64,000 nt of DNA from assembly GCA_026646655.1 (NCBI GenBank), contig JAPKHT010000001.1:73775-137774 (forward strand). The letters run 5' to 3'. Below the pieces are notes generated by a model. The model saw nothing but the letters and a program-made list of their open reading frames with translations, did no database searches and was not told the origin of the DNA. The position numbers were made by a program, and so were the translations under genes. Positions 5,941-63,512 of this stretch are shown in pieces; position 1 is the first letter of the stretch; every line of letters begins with the position of its first letter. The DNA is from Verrucomicrobiia bacterium. Lineage in GTDB: Bacteria; Verrucomicrobiota; Verrucomicrobiia; JADLBR01.

Positions 5941-5948
5941 GGAACTCC

Positions 5949-6947: not shown

Positions 6948-6956
6948 ACGAAAGCA

Positions 6957-8780: not shown

Positions 8781-8827
8781 CTCGTCATGAACAGAGCAAT
8801 CCATCACGCCTCTCTTCGATTGAATCC

Positions 8828-11404: not shown

Positions 11405-11451
11405 CAGATGGCAGGGTTCCCCTCGGCCGCCCAACAGATGACAACACTAAC

Positions 11452-12798: not shown

Positions 12799-14141
12799 AG
12801 CCCACCCTCACCCTCCTCGCCGCGCTGCTGCTCGCGCCGCTGGCCGCGTCGCACGCTGCGGATGCGGCAACGTCCGGGGATGAATGGCTCCGCCTGACTG
12901 CGGAGAGCCGGACGCTGCTCCAGCGCGACCCGAGTCTCCTGACGCTCGAACCGGTGCGGTTGCCATGCGGGCGGCATCTGCTCGGTGCCAACGATCATCT
13001 GGGGTGGCCGGTGGCTACGCTCTCGGGCCAGGCCATCGTGGTGGTGTTCCATCGCAAGCCCCAGCATTGGAGTGGCAAGGACGAGCCGGACGCCCACACG
13101 TCCACCGCCGTGGTCAGTCGGTCGACCGATGGTGGAGAATCGTGGTCGGAGCCGGTCGACCTGCGGCAGTTCGTGCTGACGCCTACCAAAGGTTGCCGGC
13201 TCGGCTTTGGCAACACCATCGGCACGGATGCGGGCGGTGCGGTGGTGGTGGTCACTGGCTACGGCGTGTTTCGCTCCGAGGATGAGGGCGCGAGCTGGCA
13301 GCACCTGCCGGGGGCCTTCGGCGAGGACCAGCTCAAGGGTCCAAAGACGAACAACGGTCCGAGGTTGGCGCTTCATCCGGAATACGGTCTGGTTGCACCG
13401 GGTCACAAAACGAGCGAGGGAATCGTCCCTAGGCGACGCAACCCTGACGGCACACCCTATATCGCTCCCGAGCTCTGGGTGCGATGGTCGAAGGATGGCG
13501 GGCGGACGTGGCAGGAGACGAAACAGGATTTGCCGGCATTTGCCACGGCCATCGAGCCCAGCGCGCTGTCGCATGACGGCGCCCTGTTCATCGTCGCGCG
13601 CTGCCACGGACCGGAGAGCTACGAGCCAGCGACCAAGACGTGGCGCTACGTGCAACTCTGGTCCGCCACCGGCTGGCTGCCGTTCCAGGCGGCGTTGACG
13701 GACATCCGCGCCTCCGATGTGCGCGATCGCAGTCGTGGCAATTACCACGGCCCGTGGACGCAGGACACGGTGGATTTGAGCTTCAACCCCGTGAGCCGCC
13801 GCATCGAGTGCGTCGCCACCGACCGCAATGGCGACGCTGGGGCGGGCGCGAACAACCTGCGGGACTGCCAGACTCTCAATCTCTGGAGCATCGACCCCGC
13901 AGCCTTTCGGCGTGGGGAAATCCAGTGGCGTTTCGAAGGCACGCTGATGAAAAGGAGCGGCCTGATGGCCAAGGGCGAGATCGACGGCATGCACCCGGGC
14001 GCCGCCGTGATCGACACGACCGCCGGGGTCCAGCACATCTTCATCTACGCGGGAGCGCCCGCAGGACCAGCCGGGATATTCCGTCTCACCCGGACGCTCG
14101 ATACCGACCGGCTCCGAACACCCCTGCACCAATCCCAATGA
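12795..14141 (+). CDS. BNR/Asp-box repeat protein (sialidase-like beta-propeller), secreted
   Basis: Signal peptide MKPTLTLLAALLLAPLAASHA; Asp-boxes SRSTDGGESWS, SEDEGASWQ, SKDGGRTWQ; ATGA overlaps at both ends (12795-12798, 14138-14141). Confidence 0.75.
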   Translation: MKPTLTLLAALLLAPLAASHAADAATSGDEWLRLTAESRTLLQRDPSLLTLEPVRLPCGRHLLGANDHLGWPVATLSGQAIVVVFHRKPQHWSGKDEPDAHTSTAVVSRSTDGGESWSEPVDLRQFVLTPTKGCRLGFGNTIGTDAGGAVVVVTGYGVFRSEDEGASWQHLPGAFGEDQLKGPKTNNGPRLALHPEYGLVAPGHKTSEGIVPRRRNPDGTPYIAPELWVRWSKDGGRTWQETKQDLPAFATAIEPSALSHDGALFIVARCHGPESYEPATKTWRYVQLWSATGWLPFQAALTDIRASDVRDRSRGNYHGPWTQDTVDLSFNPVSRRIECVATDRNGDAGAGANNLRDCQTLNLWSIDPAAFRRGEIQWRFEGTLMKRSGLMAKGEIDGMHPGAAVIDTTAGVQHIFIYAGAPAGPAGIFRLTRTLDTDRLRTPLHQSQ

Positions 14142-16201
14142 AACACACCCTCACCCTCCTCACCGCCCTGCTGCTCGCGCCGCTGGCCGCGCTGCGCTCC
14201 GCCGTTCCCTCGGCCGATGAGCACTCGGTCGCAAAGCGGTGGATGCAGGACAATCTGCTCGGGGAGGGCGGGGGTGAGCCATTCAGTTTCGCCGTGGGTG
14301 GAAGGCCGTCTGGCGGATTGTTCGATGGATGGAAGTTGAGCCGGGGGGAGCGCGAGTTGGGTGAGCGGCGCCGCGAACACACGCTCACGTGGGTGGATGA
14401 TGTGACGGGGTTGCACGTGCGCTGCGCCGCGGTGGCGTATGCCGACTTCCCTGTCGTGGAGTGGACCCTGTGGCTCAAGAACACCGGCCACGAAAACACG
14501 CCGGTCCTTGAAGCCATCCAAGGGCTCGACGCGGACTTCGATCGCGAGGAGGGGGGCGAGTTTGTGCTGCACGGCGTGCGTGGTGATTCCTGCCTGCCGG
14601 AGAGCTTTCGCCCGTATGCGCTCACGCTGGGGCCGGGCACGGTGAAGCGGTGTTCGCCGCCGGTCGCGGGTGAGAAGGTGTCGGGCAAATCGTCGGATGG
14701 GCCGGATGGCTGGCCTTACTTCAATCTGCAAAGGCCCGGCGGCGGCGTGATTCTTGCGGTCGGTTGGCCCGGGCAGTGGGAGGCGACGTTTGCGCGCGAT
14801 CAGGAACATGGCCTGCGCGTGAAAGCGGGCCAGCAGCTCACGCATCTCGCGCTTCGGCCGGGCGAGGAGATCCGCACGCCCTCGATCACGTTGCTGTTCT
14901 GGAAGGGCGAGGACGTGGTGCGCGCGCAAAACCTCTGGCGCTCGTGGTACGTGGCACACGTGCTGCCGCGGGTCGGCGACGAGCCACAGCCGCCCATCAC
15001 GCAGATCCAGGTAAATGGCTCGTTGGCGTCATGGCCTGGGGTACAGGCGTATCTCGACGCCGGCATCAAGCCGGACATCTGCTGGCGCGACGCGGGGGGC
15101 GCCAACACCTGGTATCCCAGCGCGGGCGGCCCATTCACCGATCCGAAAAAAATCTGGCTGAATACCGGCACGTGGCAAATCGATCCCGCGAAATACCCGC
15201 AGGGCTTCAGGCCATTCAGCGACAGGGTGCGCGCGCACGGCATGCAGTTCTTGCTGTGGTTCGAGCCCGAGCGCGTGGGCGATCCGAATTCCTGGCTGGG
15301 CAAAAACCATCCCGAGTGGCTCCTGCCCGGCAACAGCGTCGGCTCCGTGCTCAACCTGGGCGATCCCGCCGCGCTGAAATGGCTCATCGGGCACATCGAC
15401 GGCATGGTGAAATTGCAGGGACTCGACTGGTATCGAGAGGACCTGAACGGCGGGAACTACGGCACCGCATGGCGGAATCACGACGCACCCGACCGCCAGG
15501 GCATCACCGAGAACCTCCACGTGCAGGGCCACCTCGCGTTCTGGGACGAGCTGCGCCGCCGCAACCCGCATATGCGCATCGATTCTTGCGCCTCCGGCGG
15601 GCGGCGCAACGATCTCGAAACGATGCGCCGCGCGGTGCCGCTATTGCGCAGCGACTGGTCGGTGACGGCCTTCGCGAAGGAGCCATTGCAGCTCGAGGGA
15701 AATCAGGCGCAAACCTACGGACTCTCTTCATGGCTGCCGTGGCAGGGCGCGGGCGTGCCATTCTTCACGGATCGCTACGCCGTGCGCAGCTACTGCGTCA
15801 CCGGCTTTGGAATGATCTCGGCGGGGGACTGGACCAAGGACGAGGGGAAGCGCGACGGGACGATTCGCGGCTACACCGAGATCCGGCGCATCGGCCCGCT
15901 GCTGCTCGGCGACTACTACCCGCTCACGCCCTACAGCCTAGACACGACCTCGTGGATCGCGTGGCAGTTCCACCGCGCCGATTTGAACGAGGGCGTCGTG
16001 CAGGCCTTCCGCCGTCCGGAGGCAGCGAACGAAACCCTCACCGTTCGGCTGCGCGGCCTCGACCCGAAGCAGCGCTACGAGATCGAGGATCTCGACGGCG
16101 GCAAAGAAGTCCGCGCCGGAGAGGAGCTCATGCATGGCCTCGCCATCACGCTGCGCGAGAAGCCCGCCGCCGCCGTGCTTATCCTGAAAGCGATCCCGTG
16201 A
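14138..16201 (+). CDS. GH36-like alpha-galactosidase family glycoside hydrolase
   Basis: Signal peptide MKHTLTLLTALLLAPLAALRS; GH36 signatures LLWFEPERVGDPNSWLGKNHPEWLL (cf. GLWxEPEMV...HPDWVL), DWYREDLNG (KWDxN-like), IDSCASGGRRND (CxSGGGR motif), RSDW (W-x-SD). Confidence 0.72.
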   Translation: MKHTLTLLTALLLAPLAALRSAVPSADEHSVAKRWMQDNLLGEGGGEPFSFAVGGRPSGGLFDGWKLSRGERELGERRREHTLTWVDDVTGLHVRCAAVAYADFPVVEWTLWLKNTGHENTPVLEAIQGLDADFDREEGGEFVLHGVRGDSCLPESFRPYALTLGPGTVKRCSPPVAGEKVSGKSSDGPDGWPYFNLQRPGGGVILAVGWPGQWEATFARDQEHGLRVKAGQQLTHLALRPGEEIRTPSITLLFWKGEDVVRAQNLWRSWYVAHVLPRVGDEPQPPITQIQVNGSLASWPGVQAYLDAGIKPDICWRDAGGANTWYPSAGGPFTDPKKIWLNTGTWQIDPAKYPQGFRPFSDRVRAHGMQFLLWFEPERVGDPNSWLGKNHPEWLLPGNSVGSVLNLGDPAALKWLIGHIDGMVKLQGLDWYREDLNGGNYGTAWRNHDAPDRQGITENLHVQGHLAFWDELRRRNPHMRIDSCASGGRRNDLETMRRAVPLLRSDWSVTAFAKEPLQLEGNQAQTYGLSSWLPWQGAGVPFFTDRYAVRSYCVTGFGMISAGDWTKDEGKRDGTIRGYTEIRRIGPLLLGDYYPLTPYSLDTTSWIAWQFHRADLNEGVVQAFRRPEAANETLTVRLRGLDPKQRYEIEDLDGGKEVRAGEELMHGLAITLREKPAAAVLILKAIP

Positions 16202-16400
16202 AGGGATTGCAGAGAGACACTCCGGTGTCCGCAAAGTCCTCGACGTTTCGGGTCACCAGGGTCAATCCGTGGACGATTTCCATCAGGCTAACCACACTGA
16301 CGAAGCACGCCGCGGCCGAGACGCCCGACTGCCACTTCGCCACACTGGGGTGGCAGCGTTTCCTCTTCCGCGATTCGGAAGGCACGTTGGTTTCCAGCAA
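16179..16400 (-). pseudogene. VapC (PIN-domain toxin) C-terminal fragment
   Basis: C-terminal ~36 aa of the minus-strand ORF read EIVHGLTLVTRNVEDFADTGVSLCNPF, the characteristic VapC C-terminus (TLVTRN..DF......NPF); the upstream part has no PIN features and no cognate VapB; lies between convergent genes. Confidence 0.4.
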
Positions 16401-26110: not shown

Positions 26111-26137
26111 AGTCAAGAATCGATATCCGTCGGTCAA
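26111..26137 (+). promoter_or_regulatory. direct-repeat motif AGTCAAGAATCGATATCCGTCGGTCAA (GGTCAA-N15-GGTCAA family), copy 1
   Basis: Begins 1 nt after the TGA of the upstream gene, ~110 nt upstream of the GH29 start; the same architecture occurs at 44955 and 60075. Confidence 0.45.
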
Positions 26138-26247
26138 AGGGAGACATTTCTTTCCTGGCTGCGACCAGGCATCCTGTCCCCGCCGATGTATTGCGCGGAT
26201 CGAGATTTCCGCGGTGACACAGCAGAGGAGTGAAAGGAAACGGCGCC

Positions 26248-28062
26248 ATGAGAGTGACCCTGCATCATATCGCGGCGATTTGCCTTGCCGTGAGGCCCCT
26301 CGTTTCTGACGGGGCGGACAAACCCGAACCGGTGATGGACGGCACCTCGGCCGACATGTGGGGCAAGGGTGGCGTTGCGAAGGGCGATGCCCGCGGGGCG
26401 TGGCTGAAGGACTCGCGTTTCGCGATGTTCGTTCACTGGGGCCTGTATTCGGAGCTGGGGGGAAAATGGGACGACAAGACGTACTACGGGATCGCCGAGT
26501 GGATCATGAAGCGCGCGAAGATCCCCGTGGCCGAGTACGAGAAGGTGGCGGGGCGCTTCAACCCGACTGGCTTCGAAGCGCGCGAGTGGGTAAAACTCGC
26601 GAAGGACACCGGCATGCGCCACATCATGATCACCTCGAAACATCACGATGGGTTCGCGATGTTCAAGTCGGCGGTCAGCCCATTCAACATAGTCGACGCG
26701 ACGCCCTTCAGGCGGGATCCGATGAAGGAGCTGGCCGACGCGTGCCGCGAGGCGGGTCTTCGGCTGGGGTTTTACTACTCTCAGACGCAGGACTGGCACG
26801 AGCGCGATGCCGTGGGCAACGACTGGGACTTCAAGCCGGCCGAGGCGAATTTCCAAGGTTACCTGAAGGGCAAGGCCATCCCGCAGATCGAGGAACTGCT
26901 GCGCAACTACGGGCCGATCGCCGGGGTGTGGTTCGACACGCCGGGGCCGATCACGCCCGAGGAATCGAAGACGCTCGTCGATCTGGTGCACCGCCTGCAG
27001 CCGCAATGTCTCGTCAATAGCCGCATCGGCAATGACCTCGGCGATTACGACACGCTCGGGGATCAGGAGATCCCGCGGCTGCCGCGCGCCGGCCTGTGGG
27101 AGACCCCCGACACGCACAATGACACGTGGGCCTATGCCTGGTACGACAAGAATTGGAAGAGCCCGCGCGAGATCGCGGAGCGGCTCGTCCGCGTGGCGAG
27201 CCGGGGCGGCACCTACATGCTCAACGTCGGGCCCGATGGAATCGGGCGCATCCCGGGGCAGTCCGCGCGCATCCTGCGCGAGGTCGGCAGATGGGTGCTC
27301 GCGCACGAGGACGCGATCCATGGCGCCGGGCCGACGCCATTCGGCCCACTCGCCTGGGGCGAGTGCACCACCCGGGGGAACACCCTCTTCCTCCATGTCT
27401 TTCAATGGCCCGCGGACGGGCGCCTCGTCGTCCCCGGCCTGAGGACGAAGGTGAAGTCCGCCCGGCTGGATGGGGCGGGAGAACTGGCGGTCGAGTCGGG
27501 GACGGAAGCGCTGACGCTCGCGCTGCCGGCCAGTCGCCCGGATGTCCTCATCCCTGTGGTGGCCGTCGAGCTGGACGGTCCGGCGGAGGCTGGCCGCGAA
27601 CAGTTCGTGATCAACGGCTGCCGCCAGACCCTGGAGACGGGCGTCGCGAAACTTCAGGGCTGCGAGCTGAAGGCGGTGCGCTGGATGGAGAAGTTCGGCG
27701 ATTGGAAGCACGCGGAATGCGTCGTCGGCTGGCGGGGTGCCGAGAGTTCGACGGAATGGGAGTTCCGCACGGTCGCCCCCGGTTCCTTCTACCTCGACGT
27801 GGAATACACATGCCCGGCCGAGGAGGATTACTCCGAGTGGCGCGTGAGGTGCGGCGACGCCGAACTCACCTTCCCCCTGATCGATACCGGAGAGCGCCCC
27901 AAGCGCGCGGCGTTCGGTGGCGCGCTGCCGCGTTTCCGGACCTATCGCGTGGGCGTGATCGATTTCCCGAAGGCCGGTGCGCAGCGGCTGGCCCTGGGCC
28001 CGACCGGCATGGGGGGAAGGGCAGTCCGGATCGCCGCGGTGACGCTCGCGCCGGTGGAGTGA
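26248..28062 (+). CDS. GH29 alpha-L-fucosidase with C-terminal beta-sandwich and extra ~170-aa domain
   Basis: FAMFVHWGLYSELGG, KHHDGFAMF, WFDTPGP match the GH29 core; a GTG at 26230 is an alternative start. Confidence 0.85.
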   Translation: MRVTLHHIAAICLAVRPLVSDGADKPEPVMDGTSADMWGKGGVAKGDARGAWLKDSRFAMFVHWGLYSELGGKWDDKTYYGIAEWIMKRAKIPVAEYEKVAGRFNPTGFEAREWVKLAKDTGMRHIMITSKHHDGFAMFKSAVSPFNIVDATPFRRDPMKELADACREAGLRLGFYYSQTQDWHERDAVGNDWDFKPAEANFQGYLKGKAIPQIEELLRNYGPIAGVWFDTPGPITPEESKTLVDLVHRLQPQCLVNSRIGNDLGDYDTLGDQEIPRLPRAGLWETPDTHNDTWAYAWYDKNWKSPREIAERLVRVASRGGTYMLNVGPDGIGRIPGQSARILREVGRWVLAHEDAIHGAGPTPFGPLAWGECTTRGNTLFLHVFQWPADGRLVVPGLRTKVKSARLDGAGELAVESGTEALTLALPASRPDVLIPVVAVELDGPAEAGREQFVINGCRQTLETGVAKLQGCELKAVRWMEKFGDWKHAECVVGWRGAESSTEWEFRTVAPGSFYLDVEYTCPAEEDYSEWRVRCGDAELTFPLIDTGERPKRAAFGGALPRFRTYRVGVIDFPKAGAQRLALGPTGMGGRAVRIAAVTLAPVE

Positions 28063-28072
28063 GGGGGGCGAT

Positions 28073-28336
28073 GACTCGAAAATTCCGTCGGCTCGCACAT
28101 AGCGGCCCGGGGACGGTCCGCATTCCACAGGCCTTCGGCCGAAATCAGGCGGTATCCTGGGCCATGGCGGCGCCCGGTTTCGCGCGCGGCGCTATGGAGT
28201 GCGGTGCGTCCACGCACCGCTTTGGGCCGAAGCGGGTGAGGATGTTTCATCCCCCGGCGGTCCGGCGGCTGCCGGATGACGTCTAGCTCGAAAATCGCCG
28301 CATCGCATCCCGTAGCCGAACGCGTGAGCGTTTGGG
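28073..28336 (+). repeat. ~265-nt structured intergenic element, full copy A (5' module + 3' module ending in a GNRA hairpin)
   Basis: Aligns over its whole length with 58415-58681 (GACTCGAAAATT ... AGCGGCCCGGGGACGGTCCG ... GGAGTGCGGTGCGTCC-CGCACCGCTTTG ... CCGGCGGTCCGG ... TCGAAAAT ... AACGCGTGAGCGTTTGG); internal hairpins GCGGTGCGT/ACGCACCGC and CCGAACGC-GTGA-GCGTTTGG; the frame-matched peptides of the two copies diverge and hit a stop, so it is non-coding. Confidence 0.7.
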
Positions 28337-29755: not shown

Positions 29756-30589
29756 TTATCCCGCTCCCCAGGCGCGCCGCCGGACCTCCCGCGGGCAGGC
29801 GCCCTGGGCGCGCCGCACCAGGCGAGAGAAATGGAAGGGGTTCCTGAAACCGCAGCGCGCGGCGATCTCGGCGACCGTGAGGCCCGTCTCGCCCAGCAGG
29901 GCGACGCCCCGCTCCACGCGCAGGCGCCAGAGGTGCCGCGCGGGCGTGAGCTTCATCTCGTCGCGAAACTTGTAGATCAGCGCATTGCGTGACACCCCGG
30001 CCGCGCGATGGGCGCCGGCGAGGCAATCCGATTCGCCGAAGTGCTCCTCCATGTGCCGTAGCGCGGCGTGCACCGGCGCCATGTGGCGGGAGACTGCGCC
30101 GCCCGCGCGGGACATGTTCACGTACTCGCGAAACAGGCACAGGGCCACATCGAGGACGACGTGGCGCGCCGATTCGTTCACGGGCAGGGCCAGCTTGAAT
30201 GCCGCCGCGTGGAGGTGGCGGAACGTGTCGGAACAGGCCGCCAGCGGTGGCGCGCCCGACAGCCGCCGCCGGAGGTCGGCGGGAACGCGAGCCGGCGAAA
30301 GCGCGCACCACGTGTGGTGTGTCTCGGCGGCCGGGGAGAACTGGAAGCGCTCGCGCCCGCCGGGCCGCAGCAGCGCCGCCCAGCCGATCCGGAGCTCGCG
30401 CGGCTCGGTGCCCACGGACAGCCGACAGTTCCCCGAGTGCAGGATGACCAGCTGGAAATCGCGCTGTATGCGCGGGCCGCAAAAACCGCCGGGACCGTAG
30501 CGTATCTCGCCCAGCACCACCCCCGGCGCGCGGAGCCTCCGGTTGTCCCACAGGACGTGCGCCCCATCGTAGAACATGTCGCCATCCAA
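29756..30589 (-). CDS. AraC-family transcriptional regulator
   Basis: N-terminal cupin-like sensing region; C-terminal AraC HTH (LTVAEIAARCGFRNPFHFSRLVRRAQGACPREVRRR); divergent from the beta-helix lipoprotein gene at 30781. Confidence 0.8.
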   Translation of the reverse strand: MDGDMFYDGAHVLWDNRRLRAPGVVLGEIRYGPGGFCGPRIQRDFQLVILHSGNCRLSVGTEPRELRIGWAALLRPGGRERFQFSPAAETHHTWCALSPARVPADLRRRLSGAPPLAACSDTFRHLHAAAFKLALPVNESARHVVLDVALCLFREYVNMSRAGGAVSRHMAPVHAALRHMEEHFGESDCLAGAHRAAGVSRNALIYKFRDEMKLTPARHLWRLRVERGVALLGETGLTVAEIAARCGFRNPFHFSRLVRRAQGACPREVRRRAWGAG

Positions 30590-30780
30590 GCGCCCGCGCG
30601 GGCGCGGTCAACTTCGGTTTGTGATGGCGGATATGTTTTTGTGAGACGGGCCATGGCCTCCCGCCCGGGATGCGATCAGTATTGCTTTCGCATGGCCCCC
30701 GACCGCCCTAGAAGTTGACGCATGTGGAAATCGGGCGTCTGGCGCCGGAATAGGGAAGTGCTGGCAGGGAGTATCGCGTC

Positions 30781-32744: not shown

Positions 32745-32780
32745 GCCAAGCGCTCGCGCGTTCGGCTACGCGTTGCTGGC
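32745..32780 (-). repeat. degenerate inverted-orientation copy of the 3' hairpin module (CGTAGCCGAACGCGCGAGCGCTTGG)
   Basis: Plus strand reads ccaagcgctcgcgcgttcggctacgcgttgc, whose reverse complement is gcaacgcgtagccgaacgcgcgagcgcttgg. Confidence 0.3.
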
Positions 32781-39497: not shown

Positions 39498-40837
39498 AGC
39501 GAGACTTCAGCCTGTTCGGCGCACTGTGGCTCATCGCGGTCGCCGGCCTGTGCGCCGGTGCGCCGGGGCCCGGGGCCGCCGGCGGATCCGGGCCATCGGT
39601 GGCGGCCTATGACTCCATCCAGGCCGCGCTCGATGCCAACCCGGGGCGGATGATCTTTGTGCCGGCCGGGGACTACCCGATCGCCGAGAAGATCCGCGTG
39701 CGCGGCGAGCGGTCTGGACTATTCGGCCCGGGGCGCATCATCCAGCAGAACGCGGACCAGCCGATCATCGAGATCGAGAATGCCGATGCCGCCGAGATCC
39801 GCGACCTCACGCTGACGCGGGCCGAGGGGAAGATGGAGACGGGCAACGAGGGCATCCTCGCCATCCAGTGCCGTGATATCGTGGTCGATGGCGTGCGCGT
39901 GATCGACAACCGGACGCGCTCGGCCGCGATCGCATTGCGCGAGTGCCGGGGGGCGCGCGTCAGCCGGTGCGTCGTGAGGAACTACATGCGCGTGAGCGTG
40001 GACGACCGGACCTCCAGTAAGGAATGGGGCTATGCGTTCAATTGCACCGATGGCACCGGGATCGGCCTGGATCGCTGCACCGGATCGCTCGTCGAGGGCA
40101 ACCGCATCATCGAGGAGAACTTCATCCCCACGCCGGAGATCAAGGCCAGGTACCGGCTCGGCGATTGGGTGAAGAAGAACCCGGAAAAGGGGACATTCCT
40201 CAGCCAGCGTGCCTGGGACGCCGCATATTCGGACAACTGGCAGCAGGGCTCGGCCATCATCGTCAACGCGCCGGACGCCAGCGATCTCACCCGCATCCTC
40301 GGGAACCACGTTGAGAACGCCGCCCAGGGCATGGACATCCACGCCGACCACGTCATCGTGGCGAACAACGTCATCGCGAATTCATTCATGGGCATGAAGG
40401 CGATGCACGGCTCGCGCAACGTGCTCATCATCGGCAACCAGTTTTCGAAGAACTGCCTGTGGGCCATCGGCCTGATGCCGGGTGCAGCGGCGCACCCCGG
40501 GGAAAAGGGCAAGCCGGAGACCGCGAACGCCGACGGCGGCTCGATCATCGCGAATAATATCATCTCCGACTTTGGCCATGGCGACGCGCACTGGATCTGG
40601 GGGATCGAGCGCTCGCCCTTCAAGTTCGACGAGGGCCAGCAATCCGACGATCCGCCGCTGGCCGATGTGATCGTGCAGGGCAACCTGGTCCACTGCGTTG
40701 GCGAACCGCGGTACAAGTACGCGGTCATGCTCTCGGCCGGGCCGAACGCGCCGCGCGGCATGCACTTCTCCGACAACCTGTTCGCCCCTGGCTCGGCGGG
40801 GGTTTCCAACCGGGAATTGCCGCAGCGCATCCCGTAG
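39494..40837 (+). CDS. right-handed beta-helix repeat protein, secreted
   Basis: Signal peptide; PbH1-like rungs (NNVIANSFMGMKAMHGSRNVLIIGNQF; ANNIISDF); ATGA overlap with the upstream sulfatase; its stop codon lies inside a copy of the 3' hairpin module. Confidence 0.75.
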   Translation: MKRDFSLFGALWLIAVAGLCAGAPGPGAAGGSGPSVAAYDSIQAALDANPGRMIFVPAGDYPIAEKIRVRGERSGLFGPGRIIQQNADQPIIEIENADAAEIRDLTLTRAEGKMETGNEGILAIQCRDIVVDGVRVIDNRTRSAAIALRECRGARVSRCVVRNYMRVSVDDRTSSKEWGYAFNCTDGTGIGLDRCTGSLVEGNRIIEENFIPTPEIKARYRLGDWVKKNPEKGTFLSQRAWDAAYSDNWQQGSAIIVNAPDASDLTRILGNHVENAAQGMDIHADHVIVANNVIANSFMGMKAMHGSRNVLIIGNQFSKNCLWAIGLMPGAAAHPGEKGKPETANADGGSIIANNIISDFGHGDAHWIWGIERSPFKFDEGQQSDDPPLADVIVQGNLVHCVGEPRYKYAVMLSAGPNAPRGMHFSDNLFAPGSAGVSNRELPQRIP

Positions 40838-40857
40838 CCGAACGCGTGAGCGTTTGG
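40827..40857 (+). repeat. 3' hairpin module copy (GCATCCCGTAGCCGAACGCGTGAGCGTTTGG)
   Basis: Identical to 28306-28336; overlaps the last codons and stop of 39494..40837 (…RIP*); ~95 nt upstream of the esterase gene at 40955. Confidence 0.6.
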
Positions 40858-43728: not shown

Positions 43729-44931
43729 CTAATGCCGGGCGCGCTTCGGGAATGCCTGCTCGTCCAGGACGCGCCCGTCGTCGAGGGCCTTGAGCGCGAC
43801 GCTCATGCGTTCCGCGCCGCGATCGAACGTCAGCAGCAGGTAGCTGGCCCCCTTGTCGAGAAAGGCGGCATCGGGATCGATGCCGAAGGTGCCGTTGCCG
43901 CGCACCGAACTGTTGTAATAGGAGAAGCCGTCCACCACGGTGCGCTCCGCGTGGTAGCATTCGCCGGAGATGGCGATGGAGCCTTTCTCGATCAACCGCT
44001 TCCAGGCGCCCTCCGCGTGGCGGCGCACCTTGAGACTGGTCTCGCCGTAGAGGGTGATCACGAAACCGGCCGCCGTGGCGCCCATCGTTTCTTGGTACCA
44101 CTTCAGTTGCTCGGAATCCTTGTCGAAGGGATGGCAGGACTGGTTCGGTGTGCCGAAATCGCCCGTGTGGCTCATGTCCACGGAGATGATGCGCAGATCG
44201 AAGTCCGGGATGTCGAAGGCCCAGAGCCACTCCTTTCCCGGGAGCGCGAAGAACTTCCGATAGCCCGTGGCGGAGATGTCGTAGGCGGGGACGCCGGGTC
44301 CCGGGCTCTTGGGCCGGATCTTGCGGTCGAGGTTACCCAGGGAGGGCATGAACGGCGTCGAGCGGAACAGCTCGGCCTGCGTGCCGATCAGTTTGCTATG
44401 AGAGCCCGTGCTCTCCGGGTCCCCCTCCGCGCCAAACTCGTATTGCATGGCCGTGTCCCCCGCCGAGATCAACAGGTGGGCGTCCTCTTTCCGGATCGCG
44501 GTGAAATCCAGCGTGGCGTCGGCCCGGATGTTGGCGACCACCACGATGCGCAGCCGCTTTGTGGGGTAGCCCTTGAAAGTGGCGATGTCCGACACCTGCG
44601 CGCCGGTCCTCACCCGGTAGTGATACAGGGCGTCCTTCGTTTCTAGGGGAATCTCCACGTGATGGAGTTGGCGACTGCCGGGGACCTTGACAGTCTGGCC
44701 AAGGCTGGCAGACGTGCCGAATTCGACGACGGAATCCCCCGGGTCCGTCGTTTCCCAGCTGACGACGATCTTCGATGGGTCCGGGGACTGGTGGGTCAAC
44801 CAGACGCGCTCCACGCGGGCGGCTGCCTTCCCTTCGGCGTCCGCGGAAATGGCAGAATCGGCTCTGCCCGCAAAGGCGACGAGCGCGGCCAGTGAGACGA
44901 GGGGGATGCGATCGATGGATCTCATACTCAT
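43729..44931 (-). CDS. purple-acid-phosphatase-like metallophosphoesterase, secreted
   Basis: Signal peptide; PAP N-terminal fibronectin-like domain (VWLTHQSPDPSKIVVSWETTDPGDSVVEFG...YHYRV); metallophosphoesterase motifs (LRIVVVANIRAD, ISAGDTAMQYE, GNLDR). Confidence 0.75.
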   Translation of the reverse strand: MSMRSIDRIPLVSLAALVAFAGRADSAISADAEGKAAARVERVWLTHQSPDPSKIVVSWETTDPGDSVVEFGTSASLGQTVKVPGSRQLHHVEIPLETKDALYHYRVRTGAQVSDIATFKGYPTKRLRIVVVANIRADATLDFTAIRKEDAHLLISAGDTAMQYEFGAEGDPESTGSHSKLIGTQAELFRSTPFMPSLGNLDRKIRPKSPGPGVPAYDISATGYRKFFALPGKEWLWAFDIPDFDLRIISVDMSHTGDFGTPNQSCHPFDKDSEQLKWYQETMGATAAGFVITLYGETSLKVRRHAEGAWKRLIEKGSIAISGECYHAERTVVDGFSYYNSSVRGNGTFGIDPDAAFLDKGASYLLLTFDRGAERMSVALKALDDGRVLDEQAFPKRARH

Positions 44932-44954
44932 CTTTACGTGCGGGGATCGCCCCG

Positions 44955-44980
44955 GTCAAGAATCGACATCCGACGGTCAA
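44955..44980 (+). promoter_or_regulatory. direct-repeat motif GGTCAAGAATCGACATCCGACGGTCAA, copy 2
   Basis: In the divergent intergenic region, ~130 nt upstream of the 45109 start. Confidence 0.45.
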
Positions 44981-45108
44981 CTATTGATATTTCCCGAACG
45001 GGGGTGGGATGGACACCATGGGACATCGGATCGTGCCCGGCCGAGGCCTTTTCGAGGAGCGATGTGGTGAACGACTATTTTTTTATCGGGGCGGGGAGGT
45101 GGTGCGCG

Positions 45109-48100
45109 ATGGGCGAAATCCCGCGGCCTCTATCGGTCGCGATTTTGCTGTTTGCGTTGGCCGCGACGCGCGATGCGCGGGGCGCGGCGGCCCTGCCGAT
45201 ATCGGCGATGCCGCACGTCGGCGACTACACGCACATGTGGTGGGCGGAGGGATTTCCGGGGCACACGCCGGAGGCGCCGTGGCGCCGGGTCATCCAGACG
45301 GGGCGCTACGCGGTGGCGCTGGACACGGAGACGATGCGTGTCCCGCACCTGGGCCCGGTTCCGCCGGGCACGGGCTATTCGGAGTGCGCGGGCGCAGACA
45401 ACCGCGCGTGGGGCGGTCTCCCGGCCGCCGATCTCGCGCTCGCCATCGCGGTTGAGGGAAAGACCTACCGGTGCGCGCGCGGCGGCAAGTGGTCCGCTTT
45501 CGGTGGACCGCGACTGGTCGAGTCGGGCCGATTCCTGCAGCGCGCGGACGTCACCGGGCTGGTGTTTGCCGCCGAGGACGGATCCCCTCTGAACGTCGAG
45601 GCGCGATTCGAGACGGTGGCATGGCCCGATCGCCTGGCGCTGATCCTCGCGGCGCGCCCGGGGCTGATGCCGATCCCCGCGGGCGAGGCGTGTTTCGGGC
45701 GCGTCGGGGGTGGGTTCGGGCTGGATGGGACGAACCACCTCGAGATCCCGCATGCCCCGGAACTGGATCCGGCGCGATTCACGCTGGAATTGTGGGCCTT
45801 TGTCCCCACCGATTGCCAGGCTTCGGAGAAGACCTTCCCGTGGTTGGTCTGCAAGAATCGTCACGAGCAGGCTGAGGGCAATTACGGCATCGTGATCTTG
45901 GGCGGCGCGCCACAGGCGAGGATGAACATCGGCGGCGGCCGTGAGAATGCGTTCACCGTGGACGGCCGGCCCGGGCAACTGAAGATCGAGGCATGGAACC
46001 ATCTGGCGATGAGCTACGATGGAGAGACGCTGCGGTTATACGTCAACGGGGCGCCGTCCGGTGAGCGCAGGATCGGGCGCAGTCGCGTGCCCGGCCGCGA
46101 CGGGCTGGCCTTTGGACGAAGGCAGGACAACTGCGGCGACGGCTACCACTTTCGCGGGGCGATCGACGAGGTCCGATTCTATGACCGCGCGCTCGGCGCC
46201 GACGAGGTGCGCGCGCGTTACCAGAGGCCCGAGGCGGCGTCCCCGTCGATGAGGCCGATCCGCGAGTGGTCCTTCCGCTCGGATGGCCGGGCGGCTCCGT
46301 CGAAACCGCGCGAGGCGTGGCGCGATGCCTCCATGGAGATATGCCTGAACGCCGGCAAGGGGGACGCGCGCGGGCGCTGGGATCTGCCACCAGGGCAGCC
46401 GTGGGAATCGGGAGATTGGAGGGAGGTGTTCGTGGCGCTGGATTGGGACGATCCGGGCGCGACGACCAGCGGTTGGGCGAGGAAGTTGATCCATGGGTTG
46501 CGCGGGATGTTTCCGGCCGGTTCGGGGGACGCGACGCCGCGGCCCTTGCGCGTCGAGGCCAGCGAGATCCCCGGCGGTGCGCCGCAGCCGGTGGATTTCG
46601 ACGTGGCGCGCGGCTGGCATCGGGTGAACCTCGATGGCATCGAGCCCACCGTGCCGCCTGGCGATGGGCGCGACAGGCGGAATGACGCCATCGAGAGAGT
46701 GGGGCTGGTGCTATCGAACCCCGCCGACCACGGGCAGGTCGCCAGGCTGATGTTCGAGAAGACCTCGGGTGGCATCCGCCAGCGCATCGGTGCGGCGATC
46801 ACCGGCGTGTCCGCCGTCCTGCGCGATCGCGATGGTTGCCCCACGGGCATCCCGGTGCAACTGAGTAAGAATTGGCACGGGCGACCCGAGGGCGGGGTGT
46901 ATTCGGGCCAATGGTTCCACGGGATCTCGCAGGTGCGCGTGCCGCCGCGGGCCAAGTTGGAACTGGAGCTGACGATCGCGTACGGGCACTGGGGTGGCGT
47001 GGCCGCCGCATCGCACGCTCAGCTCTGTCTCATCGGCTGGGGCAGCAACCAGCTCTGGGACCAGAGCGCGCTGGGATCCTGGGGCGAGAGCATCTGCTAC
47101 GAGCCCGATCAGGCGCAGGGCCAGTGCGCCATCCTCGACGTGCGGCCCGTGATGGTCCGCTCGAGGGCCAACGACGCCCCCTGGTCCTGGACGCACAACG
47201 TGGGCGGCGGTGACTTCTTCAGGTTTTTCGATCCCTCCGGCAAGCGCGTATTCCCCGCCCGCATGCGCACCGCGTACGAGCGCCATGGGCCGTGCTTGAC
47301 CGAGGTCACCTACGCGGGGCAGACCGGCGATGCCATCGGGCACGCCGCCACCGTCAGCCTCGCCCGGACCGACGACGTCGTGCGCGGCACGTACCGCTTG
47401 CGCCTGGATGTGAGAGAGGCAATCGAGTTTTCGCGTTTCGTACTATTCCAGATCGGCGCCGACACCTACAGCTATACGGGGGAGCGCAAGATGGCGCTGG
47501 GCAATGTCGGGGGCCTGATCCGCGAGTGGCAGACCCGATGGGGCGAGGACGAGTACCGCACGGAACCCATGGAGTGCGCCGGGCGGATGCCCTGGGTGTC
47601 GCTGCACGAGGCGGTGCGGCGCGGCGACGAGGGCTCGAGCGGAGCCTGGGCCAACCGCGGCTTCGTCATCCGATCCTGGGATGCCCGCCTCGGTGGCAAG
47701 GGTGCGGCGCCGTATGTCGCCGAGCGCGGCGTCAGGGCCCGCGGCCACGATACCTCGACCATCGACATCCTTCCACCGCCGGGCCTCACCCGACTGGAGC
47801 CCGGGGACTTTGTCGAGGCGACGATCGAGCACATCATCGTGCCCCAGTTCGCCGCGGACTATTACGGCCCCAGCGAGGCGCTGCGCGCCGCGCTGAAGGA
47901 GGGGGAGAACACGTGGCGCATGATCCATCGCGAGGCCGCGGGCAACGACCGGCGCGTCAGGGTCAAGGTCGGCGCGCTCGAGGCGCTATATCCCGCGGTG
48001 CGTTTGCGCGCGGAGCGCGACCGGGCGGAATTGACGCTCGACGGCGGCCTTGGTTATGTGCCGATCACGTTCACAGGTCTCGGGGCGCCGCGCGGATACA

Positions 48101-48258
48101 CGCTCCTCCAAAACGGGCAACCCGTGGATCAGTCCGTCCACGGCAACGACTTCTGGCAGGCCGACTACGATCCCGCCTCGCGGACCTGGCAGATGACGGT
48201 CAACGTGCTGGTCGGCGAAGGCGGGGCGGGCGCGCTCCGGCTTGAGCGGACCCCGTGA
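45109..48258 (+). CDS. large secreted hypothetical protein (1049 aa) with LamG/concanavalin-like domain
   Basis: Signal peptide MGEIPRPLSVAILLFALAATRDARGA; LamG-like block (LDGTNHLEIPHAPELDPARFTLELWAFV...LAMSYDGETLRLYVNG...FRGAIDEVRFYDRAL). Confidence 0.7.
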   Translation: MGEIPRPLSVAILLFALAATRDARGAAALPISAMPHVGDYTHMWWAEGFPGHTPEAPWRRVIQTGRYAVALDTETMRVPHLGPVPPGTGYSECAGADNRAWGGLPAADLALAIAVEGKTYRCARGGKWSAFGGPRLVESGRFLQRADVTGLVFAAEDGSPLNVEARFETVAWPDRLALILAARPGLMPIPAGEACFGRVGGGFGLDGTNHLEIPHAPELDPARFTLELWAFVPTDCQASEKTFPWLVCKNRHEQAEGNYGIVILGGAPQARMNIGGGRENAFTVDGRPGQLKIEAWNHLAMSYDGETLRLYVNGAPSGERRIGRSRVPGRDGLAFGRRQDNCGDGYHFRGAIDEVRFYDRALGADEVRARYQRPEAASPSMRPIREWSFRSDGRAAPSKPREAWRDASMEICLNAGKGDARGRWDLPPGQPWESGDWREVFVALDWDDPGATTSGWARKLIHGLRGMFPAGSGDATPRPLRVEASEIPGGAPQPVDFDVARGWHRVNLDGIEPTVPPGDGRDRRNDAIERVGLVLSNPADHGQVARLMFEKTSGGIRQRIGAAITGVSAVLRDRDGCPTGIPVQLSKNWHGRPEGGVYSGQWFHGISQVRVPPRAKLELELTIAYGHWGGVAAASHAQLCLIGWGSNQLWDQSALGSWGESICYEPDQAQGQCAILDVRPVMVRSRANDAPWSWTHNVGGGDFFRFFDPSGKRVFPARMRTAYERHGPCLTEVTYAGQTGDAIGHAATVSLARTDDVVRGTYRLRLDVREAIEFSRFVLFQIGADTYSYTGERKMALGNVGGLIREWQTRWGEDEYRTEPMECAGRMPWVSLHEAVRRGDEGSSGAWANRGFVIRSWDARLGGKGAAPYVAERGVRARGHDTSTIDILPPPGLTRLEPGDFVEATIEHIIVPQFAADYYGPSEALRAALKEGENTWRMIHREAAGNDRRVRVKVGALEALYPAVRLRAERDRAELTLDGGLGYVPITFTGLGAPRGYTLLQNGQPVDQSVHGNDFWQADYDPASRTWQMTVNVLVGEGGAGALRLERTP

Positions 48259-50497: not shown

Positions 50498-50535
50498 CCC
50501 GAAAATTGCCCATCGCCTCCCGTAGCCGAGCGCGT
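50489..50535 (+). repeat. 3' hairpin module copy (CCGAAAATTGCCCATCGCCTCCCGTAGCCGAGCGCGTGAGCGTTTGG)
   Basis: Begins at the stop of the CE4 gene; the a->g change in the stem is compensated by a G-U wobble. Confidence 0.6.
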
Positions 50536-50670
50536 GAGCGTTTGGCCAAAGCCTCTCGGCTTCGGATACATTCACGGCCCCGGCGGCGCCCCCGACGCGG
50601 AGGGGATTTCGCGCATGCGCGCGAAATTTGCAGGCTAGACCCTGGATCCGAAGGCATCCATGTTCTTGCA

Positions 50671-57526: not shown

Positions 57527-58416
57527 GAGCCATCCTCGTCACGATCGCCGTCGCATGGCTGATGCCCGCGCCCGCATCGCTCGCCGCCAGGAAGGCGGAC
57601 GACGACGCCCCGCCCGGCAAGGTCTATGTCTACAAGCACTCCGCCGGCAAACCGCGCCAGATGGAGATCTATTTCCCGGAGGGCCATGACCCCGCGAAGG
57701 CGAATGTCCCCGGCGTGATCCTGTTCCACGGCGGCGGATGGACGGGCGGAGGCCTCACCCAATTCCGGGCCGCGTGCCACTACTTCGCCGGACGCGGGCT
57801 GGTGGCCGCGACGGCGGAATACCAGATGCTGTCCAAGGCGGATGCCGCCAAGTTGCCCGCGGGCGAAACCAAGAAGCGCGTCTGCATCACCGACGCCAAG
57901 AGCGCGATCCGCTGGTTCAAGCAGCACGCGGGCGAATTGGGCATCGATCCGGCGCGCATCATCACCGGAGGCGGTTCCGCGGGCGGCCACGTCTCCGCGC
58001 TCGCCACGTTGAATCCGGGACTCAACGATCCCGAAGACCCAAAAGACATAGACAGTTCGGTCGTCGCCTACCTGTGGTTCAATCCCGCCTTCACGTCGGC
58101 GGACCGCGACGATCCGGAGGTCGATGTCCTCCGCCACCTCAAGGCCGACATGGCCCCGGCCATCGCCTTTTTTGGCACGGAGGACACCTGGAAGCAGGGC
58201 TGGGACGCGGCCCACGAAAAATTGAAATCCCTCGGCAACAGCACCACGGAGCTGTGGTTGGCCGAAGGGCAGGGGCATAGCTTTTTCAATAGAGACCCGT
58301 GGCGCGCGCTGACCCTCATCGCAGCCGACCGTTTCCTGGTGCGACGGGGGTGGCTCTCTGGCGATCCGACGCTCGCGCCGCCCGCCGGCGGGGAGAAGTT
58401 GGTCAAGGCGCGCTGA
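57523..58416 (+). CDS. alpha/beta-hydrolase fold-3 esterase (CE10-like)
   Basis: Signal peptide; oxyanion-hole HGGGW; nucleophile GGSAGGH; 4-nt overlap with the upstream sulfatase. Confidence 0.8.
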   Translation: MRAILVTIAVAWLMPAPASLAARKADDDAPPGKVYVYKHSAGKPRQMEIYFPEGHDPAKANVPGVILFHGGGWTGGGLTQFRAACHYFAGRGLVAATAEYQMLSKADAAKLPAGETKKRVCITDAKSAIRWFKQHAGELGIDPARIITGGGSAGGHVSALATLNPGLNDPEDPKDIDSSVVAYLWFNPAFTSADRDDPEVDVLRHLKADMAPAIAFFGTEDTWKQGWDAAHEKLKSLGNSTTELWLAEGQGHSFFNRDPWRALTLIAADRFLVRRGWLSGDPTLAPPAGGEKLVKAR

Positions 58417-58681
58417 CTCGAAAATTTCGATTGCCCGCAAAGAGCGGCCCGGGGACGGTCCGTACTCCACAGGCCTTCGGCCGAAATGCGGCGACATCCT
58501 GAGACAGCGTCAACGCGTCCTGACAGCGACCCATTTCGCGCGCAGCGCTTTGGAGTGCGGTGCGTCCTCGCACCGCTTTGCGCTGAAGCGGCTGAGAGAT
58601 TTTTTCCTCCGGCGGTCCGGCAACCGCCGGACCAGACGGGCTGCGTCGAAAATTCCGGTGGTCTAACGCGTGAGCCTTTGG
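58415..58681 (+). repeat. ~265-nt structured intergenic element, full copy B
   Basis: Starts on the TGA of the esterase gene (TGACTCGAAAATTT) and is collinear with copy A over 5' module, hairpins and 3' module; the stem loop differs (CCA vs CTC) while the stem is kept; ends ~90 nt before the GH43 start at 58775. Confidence 0.7.
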
Positions 58682-59714: not shown

Positions 59715-60060
59715 GGGGCATCACATCCTGTGCGCGATGGCGTGGGATCCCAGGTGCTACGCCGTCATTTATGTGCCGCGCGATTACACGGATAAGAAAG
59801 ACTGGGTACCCGCGCGTTCGCCGATGGCAACGCGTTGTCCGTGGTTCTGAACAACCTCTCGGATCAAGGCAAGGATGTCTCGCTGGACATGCCCCGGGCG
59901 AAGGCCATGACGATCCGGCGGTTTGGTCGGAATGCGGACCAGACGCCATATCGCCGCGAGGGGCCACTGGCGTCAGCCCGCGCGCTATCTTTGGAGGGTC
60001 GGGAGACCGCCGTGATCAGGGCCGACTACGGCAAGGCGTTGGCCGTGCCGGTGGAGTCCG
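59715..60060 (+). pseudogene. possible decayed C-terminal beta-sandwich domain of a glycoside hydrolase (frameshifted remnant)
   Basis: Two adjacent frames translate ...AWDPRCYAVIYVPRDYTDKKDW then ...RAFADGNALSVVLNNLSDQGKDVSLDMP...VIRAD, resembling the ...avvlNnsd.a.tv.l.. C-terminal strands of GH beta-sandwich domains; no start codon. Confidence 0.25.
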
Positions 60061-60074
60061 GGTCGGATGCCGGG

Positions 60075-60100
60075 GTCAAGAATCGCCATCCGGAGGTCAA
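60075..60100 (+). promoter_or_regulatory. direct-repeat motif GGTCAAGAATCGCCATCCGGAGGTCAA, copy 3
   Basis: ~35 nt upstream of the GH29 start at 60134. Confidence 0.45.
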
Positions 60101-60133
60101 TTTTCGCCATTCTTCTTTGTGGGGGCGAGGGTC

Positions 60134-61462
60134 ATGCTCGTTCCGTCCGGCCCCGGGCACGAGCCACAGGGGGGGAATGCGCGGCTCGCCGGAGGTATGG
60201 GCGGCGACGGAGGTGAGTTGAAAACGCGAAAGTCGATTTGGGGTGCGGTGGGAAGGCGGACGCGGGCCGTCATGGGCCTTGGGTCATTATCGGGGGCGTT
60301 CGCCATGACCGTGACTGGCGCCGACGCGGTCAGCCCCCCGGGTCTGGCGTCGGAACTGGAGCGCGTTGAAAGGACCATCGGCGCCGGGCCCTATCGGCCC
60401 GAGTGGATTTCCCTCAAGGCGCACAAGGATCCCGAGTGGTTTCGTGATGCCAAGTTCGGCATTTACACCCATTGGGGACCGGTGAGCGTCGGGGCGGAGG
60501 ACGGCCCCGGCGGCGTGCAGTGGTACGGGAAGAACATGTACGAGCCCAAGAGCCCCACCTTCGAATATCACAGGCGGAAATACGGGGATCAGAAAGAGGT
60601 GGGCTACAAGGACATGATCCCGAAGTTCACGGCGGAGAAGTTTGATGCCGCGGACTGGGCGGAGCTATTTGCCAAATCCGGGGCCAAGTTTGCCGGGCCG
60701 GTGGCCGTTCACCACGACAACTTTGCCATGTGGGACTCGCGGGTCACGCGCTGGAACAGCGTTGCCATGGGGCCCCGGCGCGACATCACGGGCGAACTGG
60801 AGAAGGCCATCCGCGCGCGCGGCCTGAGGTTCATCACGACCTTTCATCATGGCTTCGCCTGGCAATACTTCGAGCCGGCGTTCAAGTTTGACGGGGCGGA
60901 TCCTCGGAATGCCGATCTCTACACGGAGCCGCACGAACCCAAGGCGCCGCCCAGCCGGAGCTTCTTGGACACGTGGCTGGCGATGGTGACCGAGGTGCTG
61001 TATCGCTATCAGCCCGACCTCATCTGGTTCGATTTCGAGCTGGAGGCCGTGATCACGCCCGAATACCAGCGCCGGATGTTCGCCGCCACATACAACTGGG
61101 CGGAGGCCCAGCGCCGGGAGATCGGGGTGGCCCACAAGCACCGCAATATCCATGAGCACACCGGCATCCTCGACTTTGAGCGCGGCCGCGAGGACCGGTT
61201 GGTGCCCTACCCGTGGCTGACGGACACATCCGTAGGCCCGTGGTTTCACCAGGAGTCTGAGAAATTCAAGACGGTGGACCAACTGGTCGACGTGCTCGTG
61301 GACATCGTGGCGAAGAATGGCTGCATGCTGCTGAACGTGGGACCGCTGGCCGACGGCACCATCCCGGAGGAGGGCCGGCGACTGCTCCTGGGCATGGGCG
61401 ACTGGTTGCGGGTCAACGGAGAAGCGATTTTTGGCACGCGGCCATGGAAGGTCTATGGGTAG
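60134..61462 (+). CDS. GH29 alpha-L-fucosidase catalytic region, terminated by an in-frame TAG at 61460-61462
   Basis: AKFGIYTHWGPVSV, AVHHDNFAMWDS, LIWFDFE match the GH29 core; possible Tat-like leader (GRRTRAVMGLGSLSGAFA) if the start is further downstream; the frame stays open after the TAG. Confidence 0.7.
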   Translation: MLVPSGPGHEPQGGNARLAGGMGGDGGELKTRKSIWGAVGRRTRAVMGLGSLSGAFAMTVTGADAVSPPGLASELERVERTIGAGPYRPEWISLKAHKDPEWFRDAKFGIYTHWGPVSVGAEDGPGGVQWYGKNMYEPKSPTFEYHRRKYGDQKEVGYKDMIPKFTAEKFDAADWAELFAKSGAKFAGPVAVHHDNFAMWDSRVTRWNSVAMGPRRDITGELEKAIRARGLRFITTFHHGFAWQYFEPAFKFDGADPRNADLYTEPHEPKAPPSRSFLDTWLAMVTEVLYRYQPDLIWFDFELEAVITPEYQRRMFAATYNWAEAQRREIGVAHKHRNIHEHTGILDFERGREDRLVPYPWLTDTSVGPWFHQESEKFKTVDQLVDVLVDIVAKNGCMLLNVGPLADGTIPEEGRRLLLGMGDWLRVNGEAIFGTRPWKVYG

Positions 61463-62209: not shown

Positions 62210-62259
62210 CTCAAGAATTGACACATCGCATCCCGTGGCCGAACGCGCGAGCGCTTCGG
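62208..62259 (+). repeat. 3' hairpin module copy (GACTCAAGAATTGACACATCGCATCCCGTGGCCGAACGCGCGAGCGCTTCGG)
   Basis: Begins on the TGA at 62207-62209; hairpin GGCCGAACGC-GCGA-GCG(C)TTCGGCC with GNRA loop and extended stem; ~125 nt upstream of the 62384 start. Confidence 0.6.
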
Positions 62260-63355: not shown

Positions 63356-63512
63356 CGGGCGCGGGGCACGGTAAACGGCAGGACGCGGCCGACTGCCGTG
63401 GGCGATCGTGCGCCAAACGCTGACGCGTTCGGCTGCTGAAATCTGGAGCCAGGCATGAATGGATGGAGAGACCCGGAGGCTATTGCCCCGATCACGATTT
63501 GGGGATAACCTC

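Follow-up and report, generated by a model that had tools for sequence, protein, structure and literature searches.

A tandem GGTCAA half-site motif upstream of fucosidase and LamG genes in a verrucomicrobial glycan-degradation cluster resembles an AraC/XylS-type operator with a dependent promoter

At araBAD (the I1-I2 site of AraC) and at Pm (the site of XylS), class II activation uses two 17-bp half-sites arranged as a direct repeat, 21 bp from centre to centre. Each of these half-sites consists of two contact boxes one helical turn apart, and the proximal one reaches a few bp into a weak -35. At the Pho boxes, bound by PhoB, and at other operators of the OmpR family, direct repeats with a period of 10-11 bp replace or adjoin a poor -35. 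A third arrangement is the PIP pattern, TTCGB-N15-TTCGB-N30-32-YANNNT, which is bound by the AraC-type activator HrpX (PMC7831014, PMC13436205).

Here, we describe a motif with a layout like these systems, in a contig of a Verrucomicrobiia bacterium. The window, i.e., the whole 64,000-nt (64-kb) stretch of DNA that was analysed, has a G+C content of about 65% and is a sulfatase-rich glycan-degradation cluster. It contains many sulfatases, two GH29 genes, GH43 and GH120-like beta-helix proteins, and it also encodes esterases, a deacetylase and one AraC-family regulator.

The core of the motif, RGTCAAGAATCG-N-YATCCG-NN-GGTCAA, occurs three times in the window, always on the + strand (chance expectation 0). 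When the pattern GGTCAAGAATCGNCATCCGNNGGTCAA is searched with up to three mismatches, exactly three matches are found in the window: site 1 at 26111-26137 (two mismatches), site 2 at 44954-44980 (none) and site 3 at 60074-60100 (none). The same search of 100 dinucleotide-preserving shuffles gives no match. Even the bare repeat GTCAA-N16-GTCAA has exact matches in the window only at the three sites. The three GGTCAA-N15-GGTCAA copies listed in the preliminary description are thereby borne out, but its starts for sites 2 and 3 (44955 and 60075) are wrong by one base at the 5' end, as the strings quoted there are 27 nt long.

The alignment of the copies reveals that the conserved region is larger than was first described and extends beyond the 27-mer. 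Five bases past the second GGTCAA, every copy reads G-N-Y-A-T-T. The box after the first GGTCAA reads CG-N-YAT and matches the G-N-YAT box that follows the second. Since the same G-N-YAT box is found one helical turn after each GGTCAA, the unit is a bipartite half-site, GGTCAA-N5-G-N-YAT. This half-site is 16-17 bp long, and two of them stand in direct repeat, separated from start to start by exactly 21 bp in all copies. In full, site 1 covers 26111-26148 with the half-sites AGTCAAGAATCGATAT(C) and GGTCAAAGGGAGACAT(T), site 2 covers 44954-44991 with GGTCAAGAATCGACAT(C) and GGTCAACTATTGATAT(T), and site 3 covers 60074-60111 with GGTCAAGAATCGCCAT(C) and GGTCAATTTTCGCCAT(T). Allowing at most one mismatch, GGTCAA-N5-G-N-YAT matches eight places in the window, and six of the eight are the tandem halves of the three sites. 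There are five perfect matches in the 64 kb, all of them at the three sites, i.e., five of the six half-sites are perfect. The first half-site carries the invariant extras GAAT and CCG, which have no counterpart in the second.

Further copies were searched for by scanning a 19-base core in 185,579 representative genomes, one per species, where a match was counted as a true copy if the flanking G and AA were present. Seven matches were found, and two of these, L004 and L007, are true copies. L004, from a Verrucomicrobiales MAG, is orthologous to site 3 and has an identical motif. L007 is an independent copy in another Verrucomicrobia MAG, located between a GH97 gene, which ends upstream of it, and a phosphoglucomutase/phosphomannomutase gene, which starts downstream. 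This shows that the motif is not confined to fucose genes. In the protein collection searched, the closest match to this phosphomutase is encoded on a contig with only 45 nt upstream of it. A scan of JGI metagenomes with the core gave 11 matches, none of which is a true copy, i.e., they are chance matches without the flanking bases. No copy was found in the viral contigs scanned, and PLSDB plasmids gave no match to the site 2 region. Extending the source contig by 10 kb downstream and 5 kb upstream of the window also gave no further copy.

An ortholog of site 2 is present at the locus L022, where the LamG protein is 85% identical and the motif is kept with one substitution. In LamG orthologs of 75% and 69% identity the motif is absent. 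Judged from these sequences, the motif is restricted to a narrow clade plus L007. In total, there are four independent copies, i.e., the three window sites and L007, while L004 and L022 are orthologous copies of sites 3 and 2. In this small sample of four independent copies, motif positions 13, 20-21, 28-32 and 34 vary freely, whereas some 27 others hardly vary, a pattern that points to selection and not to recent copying.

The orthologous pairs show where conservation ends. Site 2 and L022 are 83% identical overall; positions 1-69 of the motif differ by one change, and divergence sets in directly after. L022 carries an insertion of 59 nt just upstream of the motif, so the distance from the motif to the downstream gene is kept. 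Between site 3 and L004, the motif and a TCATGCT are intact, while the stretches between and after them, including the start region, have diverged.

Downstream of the half-sites lies a box that resembles a -10. Between motif positions 45 and 80, each of the four independent copies contains a single YANNNT, which always lies at position 60 or 61; the background frequency is 0.012 per position. These -10-like boxes read CATCCT, CACCAT, CATGCT and CATGCT, so that CANNNT follows the second GGTCAA by 32-33 nt in 4/4 independent copies, and the first base is C rather than T. At positions 37-42, weak -35-like sequences are found (TTTCTT, TTTCCC, TTCTTC and TTTACG), with a spacer of 17 bp to the -10-like box.

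At site 1, the predicted -10 is CATCCT at 26170-26175 (+ strand), 32 nt after the second GGTCAA, preceded by the weak -35-like TTTCTT at 26147-26152, and the start would lie at about 26182. The -10 and start proposed for site 1 follow from the geometry that it has in common with the promoter of the AraC gene, discussed below. At site 2 (+ strand), the predicted -10 is CACCAT at 45014-45019, 33 nt after the second GGTCAA, with TTTCCC at 44990-44995 as the weak -35-like sequence and a putative start near 45026. The block conserved between site 2 and L022 ends near this predicted -10. At site 3, the predicted -10 CATGCT at 60133-60138 (+ strand) is kept in L004, and the start is placed at about 60145.

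Compared with the described systems, the motif is closest in layout to the PIP box, or hrpII box, of Xanthomonas, Ralstonia and Acidovorax with their regulators HrpX and HrpB. Both have a short box directly repeated with N15 between the repeats, followed at a fixed 30-33 nt by a -10-like YANNNT without a good -35. Both are oriented toward the regulated gene and common to several dispersed genes. However, the hexamer here is GGTCAA and not TTCGB, the region between the repeats is conserved here (GAATCG-N-YATCCG), and the distance to the -10 is 32-33 nt in place of 30-32. The setting also differs, being glycan degradation in Verrucomicrobiota as opposed to type III secretion in Proteobacteria, and the AraC protein encoded nearby is a cupin-HTH protein of 273 aa while HrpX has about 476 aa. 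With AraC I1-I2 and XylS Pm, the motif has in common the length of the half-site, the direct repeat at 21 bp, the paired boxes and a proximal half-site that would lie at a weak -35. The sequences are unrelated, however, and the site described here is a putative one.

All three window sites are followed by genes on the + strand, and these are the genes named in the preliminary description. A GH29 alpha-L-fucosidase gene (26248-28062; PF01120, E 6.5e-74) lies downstream of site 1, the gene of a LamG (Laminin_G_3) protein (45109-48258; database-called start GTG 45067) downstream of site 2, and a second GH29 alpha-L-fucosidase gene (60272-61462; database-called start 60305) downstream of site 3. 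The gap between motif and gene measures 110 nt at site 1 and 171 nt at site 3, or 204 nt with the start at 60305. At site 2 it is 128 nt, or 86 nt with GTG 45067 as the start. The distance of 35-130 nt proposed before is thus right in part. The start of site 1 directly adjoins the stop codon of the preceding gene. An ORF of 126 aa predicted by the gene caller (59841-60221), with a weak match to a porphyranase catalytic subdomain, runs through site 3. This ORF is probably a gene remnant, because its first 70 residues resemble the C-terminal end of a glycosidase. The gap of 562 nt upstream of the GH29 gene is thus not empty.

The LamG protein (1049 aa) is itself unusually conserved, with 60-70% identity across many Planctomycetota and Verrucomicrobiota MAGs, and Pfam recognises only one domain in it. 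On the other side of site 2 lies a divergent gene (43729-44931). On the minus strand, site 2 has its first GGTCAA within TTGACC-N17-TAAAGA-N5-ATG (44931-44980), a possible leaderless promoter of this gene. The 59-nt insertion in L022 (1440-1520) duplicates GGTCAA, so that the divergent gene and the motif each retain a copy.

The cluster's AraC/XylS-family regulator gene (29756-30577, minus strand; 273 aa, cupin and HTH_18) encodes a candidate binder, and a related element is found upstream of it. This element, TCACAAAAACATATCCGCCATCACAA, has the form TCACAA-N14-TCACAA (30619-30644, minus strand) and is followed on the same strand by a -35, TTGACC (30606-30611). We aligned the upstream regions of five AraC loci, i.e., the window, L019 (80%), L020 (76%), L021 (71%) and L035 (58%), the last from a low-GC Kiritimatiellae MAG. 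Across these orthologous loci, with protein identities of 58-100%, TCACAA-RAACMTATCYG-NNN-TCACAA is common to all five; the hexamers are invariant and the central box is nearly so. The element is found at 9931 in L019, 5615 in L020, 9934 in L021 and 9922 in L035, and it is kept whatever the gene on its other side. A second AraC-like gene in L021 has no related element upstream.

In the four Verrucomicrobial loci, the -35 follows the element after 6-7 nt and reads TTGACC (TTGACG in L020). At 16-18 nt after the -35, all five AraC orthologs have a -10 (TTGGAT, TTATAT, TACAGT or TAAAAG; in the window the region is 30577-30611, minus strand) that ends 5-7 nt before the ATG, and from this spacing the AraC genes appear to be transcribed as leaderless mRNAs.

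The two types of element resemble each other. In a MAFFT alignment, the AraC-gene element is collinear with the four GGTCAA-type copies with a single 1-nt gap, and 15 columns are invariant in all eight sequences: TCA..A......ATC.G....TCA......G...TT. The similarity of the two consensus sequences is 15.5, compared with 10.5 +/- 1.1 for column shuffles, and only 1/2000 shuffles reached the observed score. The skeleton common to both types occurs at four places in the window, i.e., the three sites and the AraC-gene element, and not at all in 200 shuffles. The alignment extends to the promoter, where the TT that starts TTGACC of the AraC gene falls in the columns of the TT at motif positions 37-38. 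With both types aligned on TCA, the -10 follows the second hexamer after 29-31 nt in the AraC promoters and after 30-31 nt in the motif. The AraC-gene element, which is apparently undescribed, therefore resembles the motif in its tandem hexamers, its conserved central YATCYG box and a similar distance from hexamer to -10, besides the 15 columns. They differ in the hexamer (TCACAA or GGTCAA), in the period (20 or 21 bp) and in the -35, which is the consensus TTGACC at the AraC gene and weak at the motif. Their distributions differ too, the TCACAA element spanning Verrucomicrobiae and Kiritimatiellae while the GGTCAA type is found in a narrow clade and one other MAG.

We suggest that each copy of the motif is the site of an AraC/XylS-type activator with a dependent promoter, and we hold this to be the probable reading, if by no means a certain one. 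An AraC/XylS-family dimer would bind the two direct-repeat half-sites, which together would span from about -72 to -35. Each half-site would offer a GGTCAA box and, one helical turn away, a G-N-YAT box, the starts of the half-sites being 21 bp apart. The promoter-proximal half-site would abut or overlap the poor -35 (TTnnnn, positions 37-42), and RNA polymerase would be recruited to the -10 box CANNNT at motif positions 60-66. Transcription would then start some 45 nt past the 27-nt core. This would switch on the two GH29 fucosidases and the LamG protein in the sulfatase-rich cluster of the fucoidan-degradation type, and the sugar phosphomutase in the MAG that contains L007. The preliminary description had preferred a response-regulator or AraC-type operator to a -35/-10 pair of a sigma factor, and its AraC-type option is supported by the bipartite half-sites at 21 bp, the fixed CANNNT, the AraC-gene element and the lack of an RNA fold. 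The whole looks like an AraC-type switch of the ordinary kind and the first candidate for one in this fucoidan-type gene cluster. The binding of a protein, a regulator that is either the local AraC (29756-30577) or one of its paralogues, an activating and not a repressing role, and the start sites are all inferred from the pattern of conservation and spacing.

Which regulator would bind the motif is a separate question. The TCACAA element is probably the cognate autoregulatory operator of the AraC orthogroup, as judged from its conservation ahead of these genes. Its consensus -35 fits autoregulation rather than a strict dependence on activation. We searched the AraC ortholog loci, including as much as 10 kb on each side if the contig was long enough, for the GGTCAA type, using at most 5-6 mismatches or a relaxed skeleton. 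No such site was found around L019, L020, L021 or L035/L036 (80, 76, 71 and 58%). As the site of the orthogroup is strictly TCACAA at 20 bp and the GGTCAA type is absent near the orthologs, a paralogue is favoured, and the local AraC may not bind the motif. On the other hand, the three GGTCAA-type sites are the only other sites of such an architecture in the cluster of this AraC, and for this reason the local AraC is still in play.

It can be speculated that the GGTCAA and TCACAA types follow one operator grammar in two dialects and serve an expanded family of AraC paralogues in Verrucomicrobiota and Kiritimatiellota. The AraC of the cluster would then regulate itself through TCACAA and directly activate the fucosidase and LamG promoters. 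This extended proposal is a tentative one that we think more doubtful than not.

The next reading in order of plausibility is an operator of an OmpR/PhoB-type response regulator, where two tandem dimers would occupy four boxes on the same face and, like PhoB at the pho boxes, activate a promoter whose -35 is poor. The motif can indeed be read as GGTCAA, CGnCAT, GGTCAA and nGnYAT at positions 1, 11, 22 and 32, in strong/weak alternation, and these boxes have the 10-11 bp period of Pho boxes and likewise lie beside a poor -35, here with a fixed -10. Besides the AraC there is no obviously linked regulator in the window, which makes a regulator encoded elsewhere plausible. However, neither the window nor the loci fetched around the motif copies showed a response-regulator gene, and the motif aligns collinearly with, and in its sequence resembles, the element that accompanies AraC genes in five loci. 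Unlike Pho boxes, it has two alternating types of box with a super-period of 21 bp, which suits a monomer with two HTHs better. Sites of the Pho-box type are usually about 10 bp from the -10, while the last box here is about 22 bp from it. Taken together, we consider a response regulator unlikely.

A promoter of an ECF-type sigma factor would use the first GGTCAAG as the -35 and the second GTCAA as the -10, with the start at the conserved YA of positions 35-36. The 15 nt between the 7-mer and GTCAA are as in RpoE promoters (GGAACTT-N15-GTCAAA), the copies are strictly oriented, and a pyrimidine-A follows the second box after 7-8 nt. ECF41 promoters reportedly read TGTCACA-N16-CGTC. However, the supposed -35 is without the AAC core typical of ECF promoters, and its identity with the -10 hexamer would be a coincidence. 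The supposed spacer, AATCG-N-YATCCG, is invariant, which an ECF promoter does not need, and conservation and a fixed box continue for 40 nt downstream. The G-N-YAT box, the CANNNT fixed at 32-33 nt and the conservation in L022 up to position 69 would be left unexplained, and so would the relation to the AraC-gene element, which is itself followed by an ordinary -35, TTGACC. Among the window genes beyond position 16400, no sigma or anti-sigma gene was found. We therefore regard an ECF promoter as quite improbable.

A plain sigma-70 promoter could also be placed within the motif, with its -35 as TCGnCA at positions 10-15 and its -10 as GnYATT at positions 33-38, 17 bp apart, and the GGTCAA boxes as repressor sites flanking the -35. 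A consensus scan does report TCGACA-17-GATATT at site 2, and in one copy of the long element discussed below, the box TCRARAATYG reads AATTGACA and contains a perfect -35. Against this, site 2 is the only one of the three sites where the scan is positive, and the A at position 2 of the -10 is present in just two of the four independent copies (GACATT, GATATT, GCCATT and GCTATT). The fixed CANNNT downstream and the conserved block up to position 69 would again have no explanation, and we give this reading little credence.

That the motif is a non-regulatory intergenic repeat, i.e., the remnant of a small mobile element or a structured RNA of the transcripts, is very improbable, for although other intergenic repeats abound in the window (the long element, a REP-like hairpin and a 190-nt repeat) and site 1 begins right after a stop codon, the copies are conserved at orthologous positions and strictly oriented toward genes, their flanks are unrelated, their variable positions are saturated while others are invariant, and they lack terminal repeats.

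Both forms of such a repeat were also considered on their own. A structured RNA was rejected, as the folding energies of the four copies equal those of shuffles (z 0.66, 0.09, 0.05 and -0.97) and their folds differ; the consensus fold of the motif copies has -5 kcal/mol, and Rfam has no match to the motif at the gathering score. A mobile or REP-like repeat was rejected since all window copies are on the + strand upstream of + strand genes and their flanks are unrelated, unlike the REP-like hairpin of the long element, which is present on both strands.

The speculative reading in which the AraC of the cluster uses both types of element would, if true, provide the first defined transcription factor, operator and regulon for the degradation of sulfated fucans (fucoidan type) in Verrucomicrobiota. 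In the literature on Verrucomicrobial regulation we found no promoter or operator for Verrucomicrobial polysaccharide-degradation clusters, and searches for the motif sequence, for Verrucomicrobia promoter motifs and for AraC with fucoidan found nothing matching. Switches of this kind are well known, so what is gained concerns annotation and testability and not the concept. The composite GGTCAA-N15-GGTCAA-N32/33-CANNNT, together with the deeply conserved AraC-gene element, is a testable handle on which genes are induced together, by which regulator, and at what points transcription starts inside long same-strand arrays that are otherwise read as single operons. Were the two types of element indeed dialects of one grammar, the regulons of this regulator family would become predictable genome-wide across the group.

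The motif had also been described as related to the long element of the window, and this holds for one part of it. The box TCRARAATYG is common to both and has five matches in the window, all on the + strand and all intergenic, where 1.04 are expected. The motif and the long element also have CATCC and G[GC][TC]C[AG]A in common. However, the second box is spaced about 8 nt differently in the two, and a separate hairpin, GCCGAACGC-GYGA-GCGYTTGGC, makes up the 3' half of the long element and also occurs without the box and on either strand.

The hairpin is REP-like, has a GNRA loop and occurs dispersed between genes, on both strands. In the window it is found at 28310-28335, 40832-40857, 50520-50545, 58656-58681 and 62233-62258 on the + strand and at 63413-63438 and 32746-32771 on the minus strand, and outside the window at 5827 in L004 and at 20728 and 11050 in L029. 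It has a weak, sub-threshold Rfam match to Acido-Lenti-1 (RF01687), with 18.5 bits where the gathering score is 37 (E 0.047).

A different intergenic repeat of 176-190 nt is present at 28070-28245 and 58412-58601. Rfam has no family that matches these two copies, which are 83-86% identical and start with TGACTCGAAAAT directly after a stop codon. Their predicted consensus fold is long, with -68 kcal/mol. Finally, in the part of the window from 1634 to 16400, up to nine successive + strand ORFs have a near-identical signal-peptide start (MKHTLTL...LLLAPLAA), which was detected as direct repeats in the DNA.
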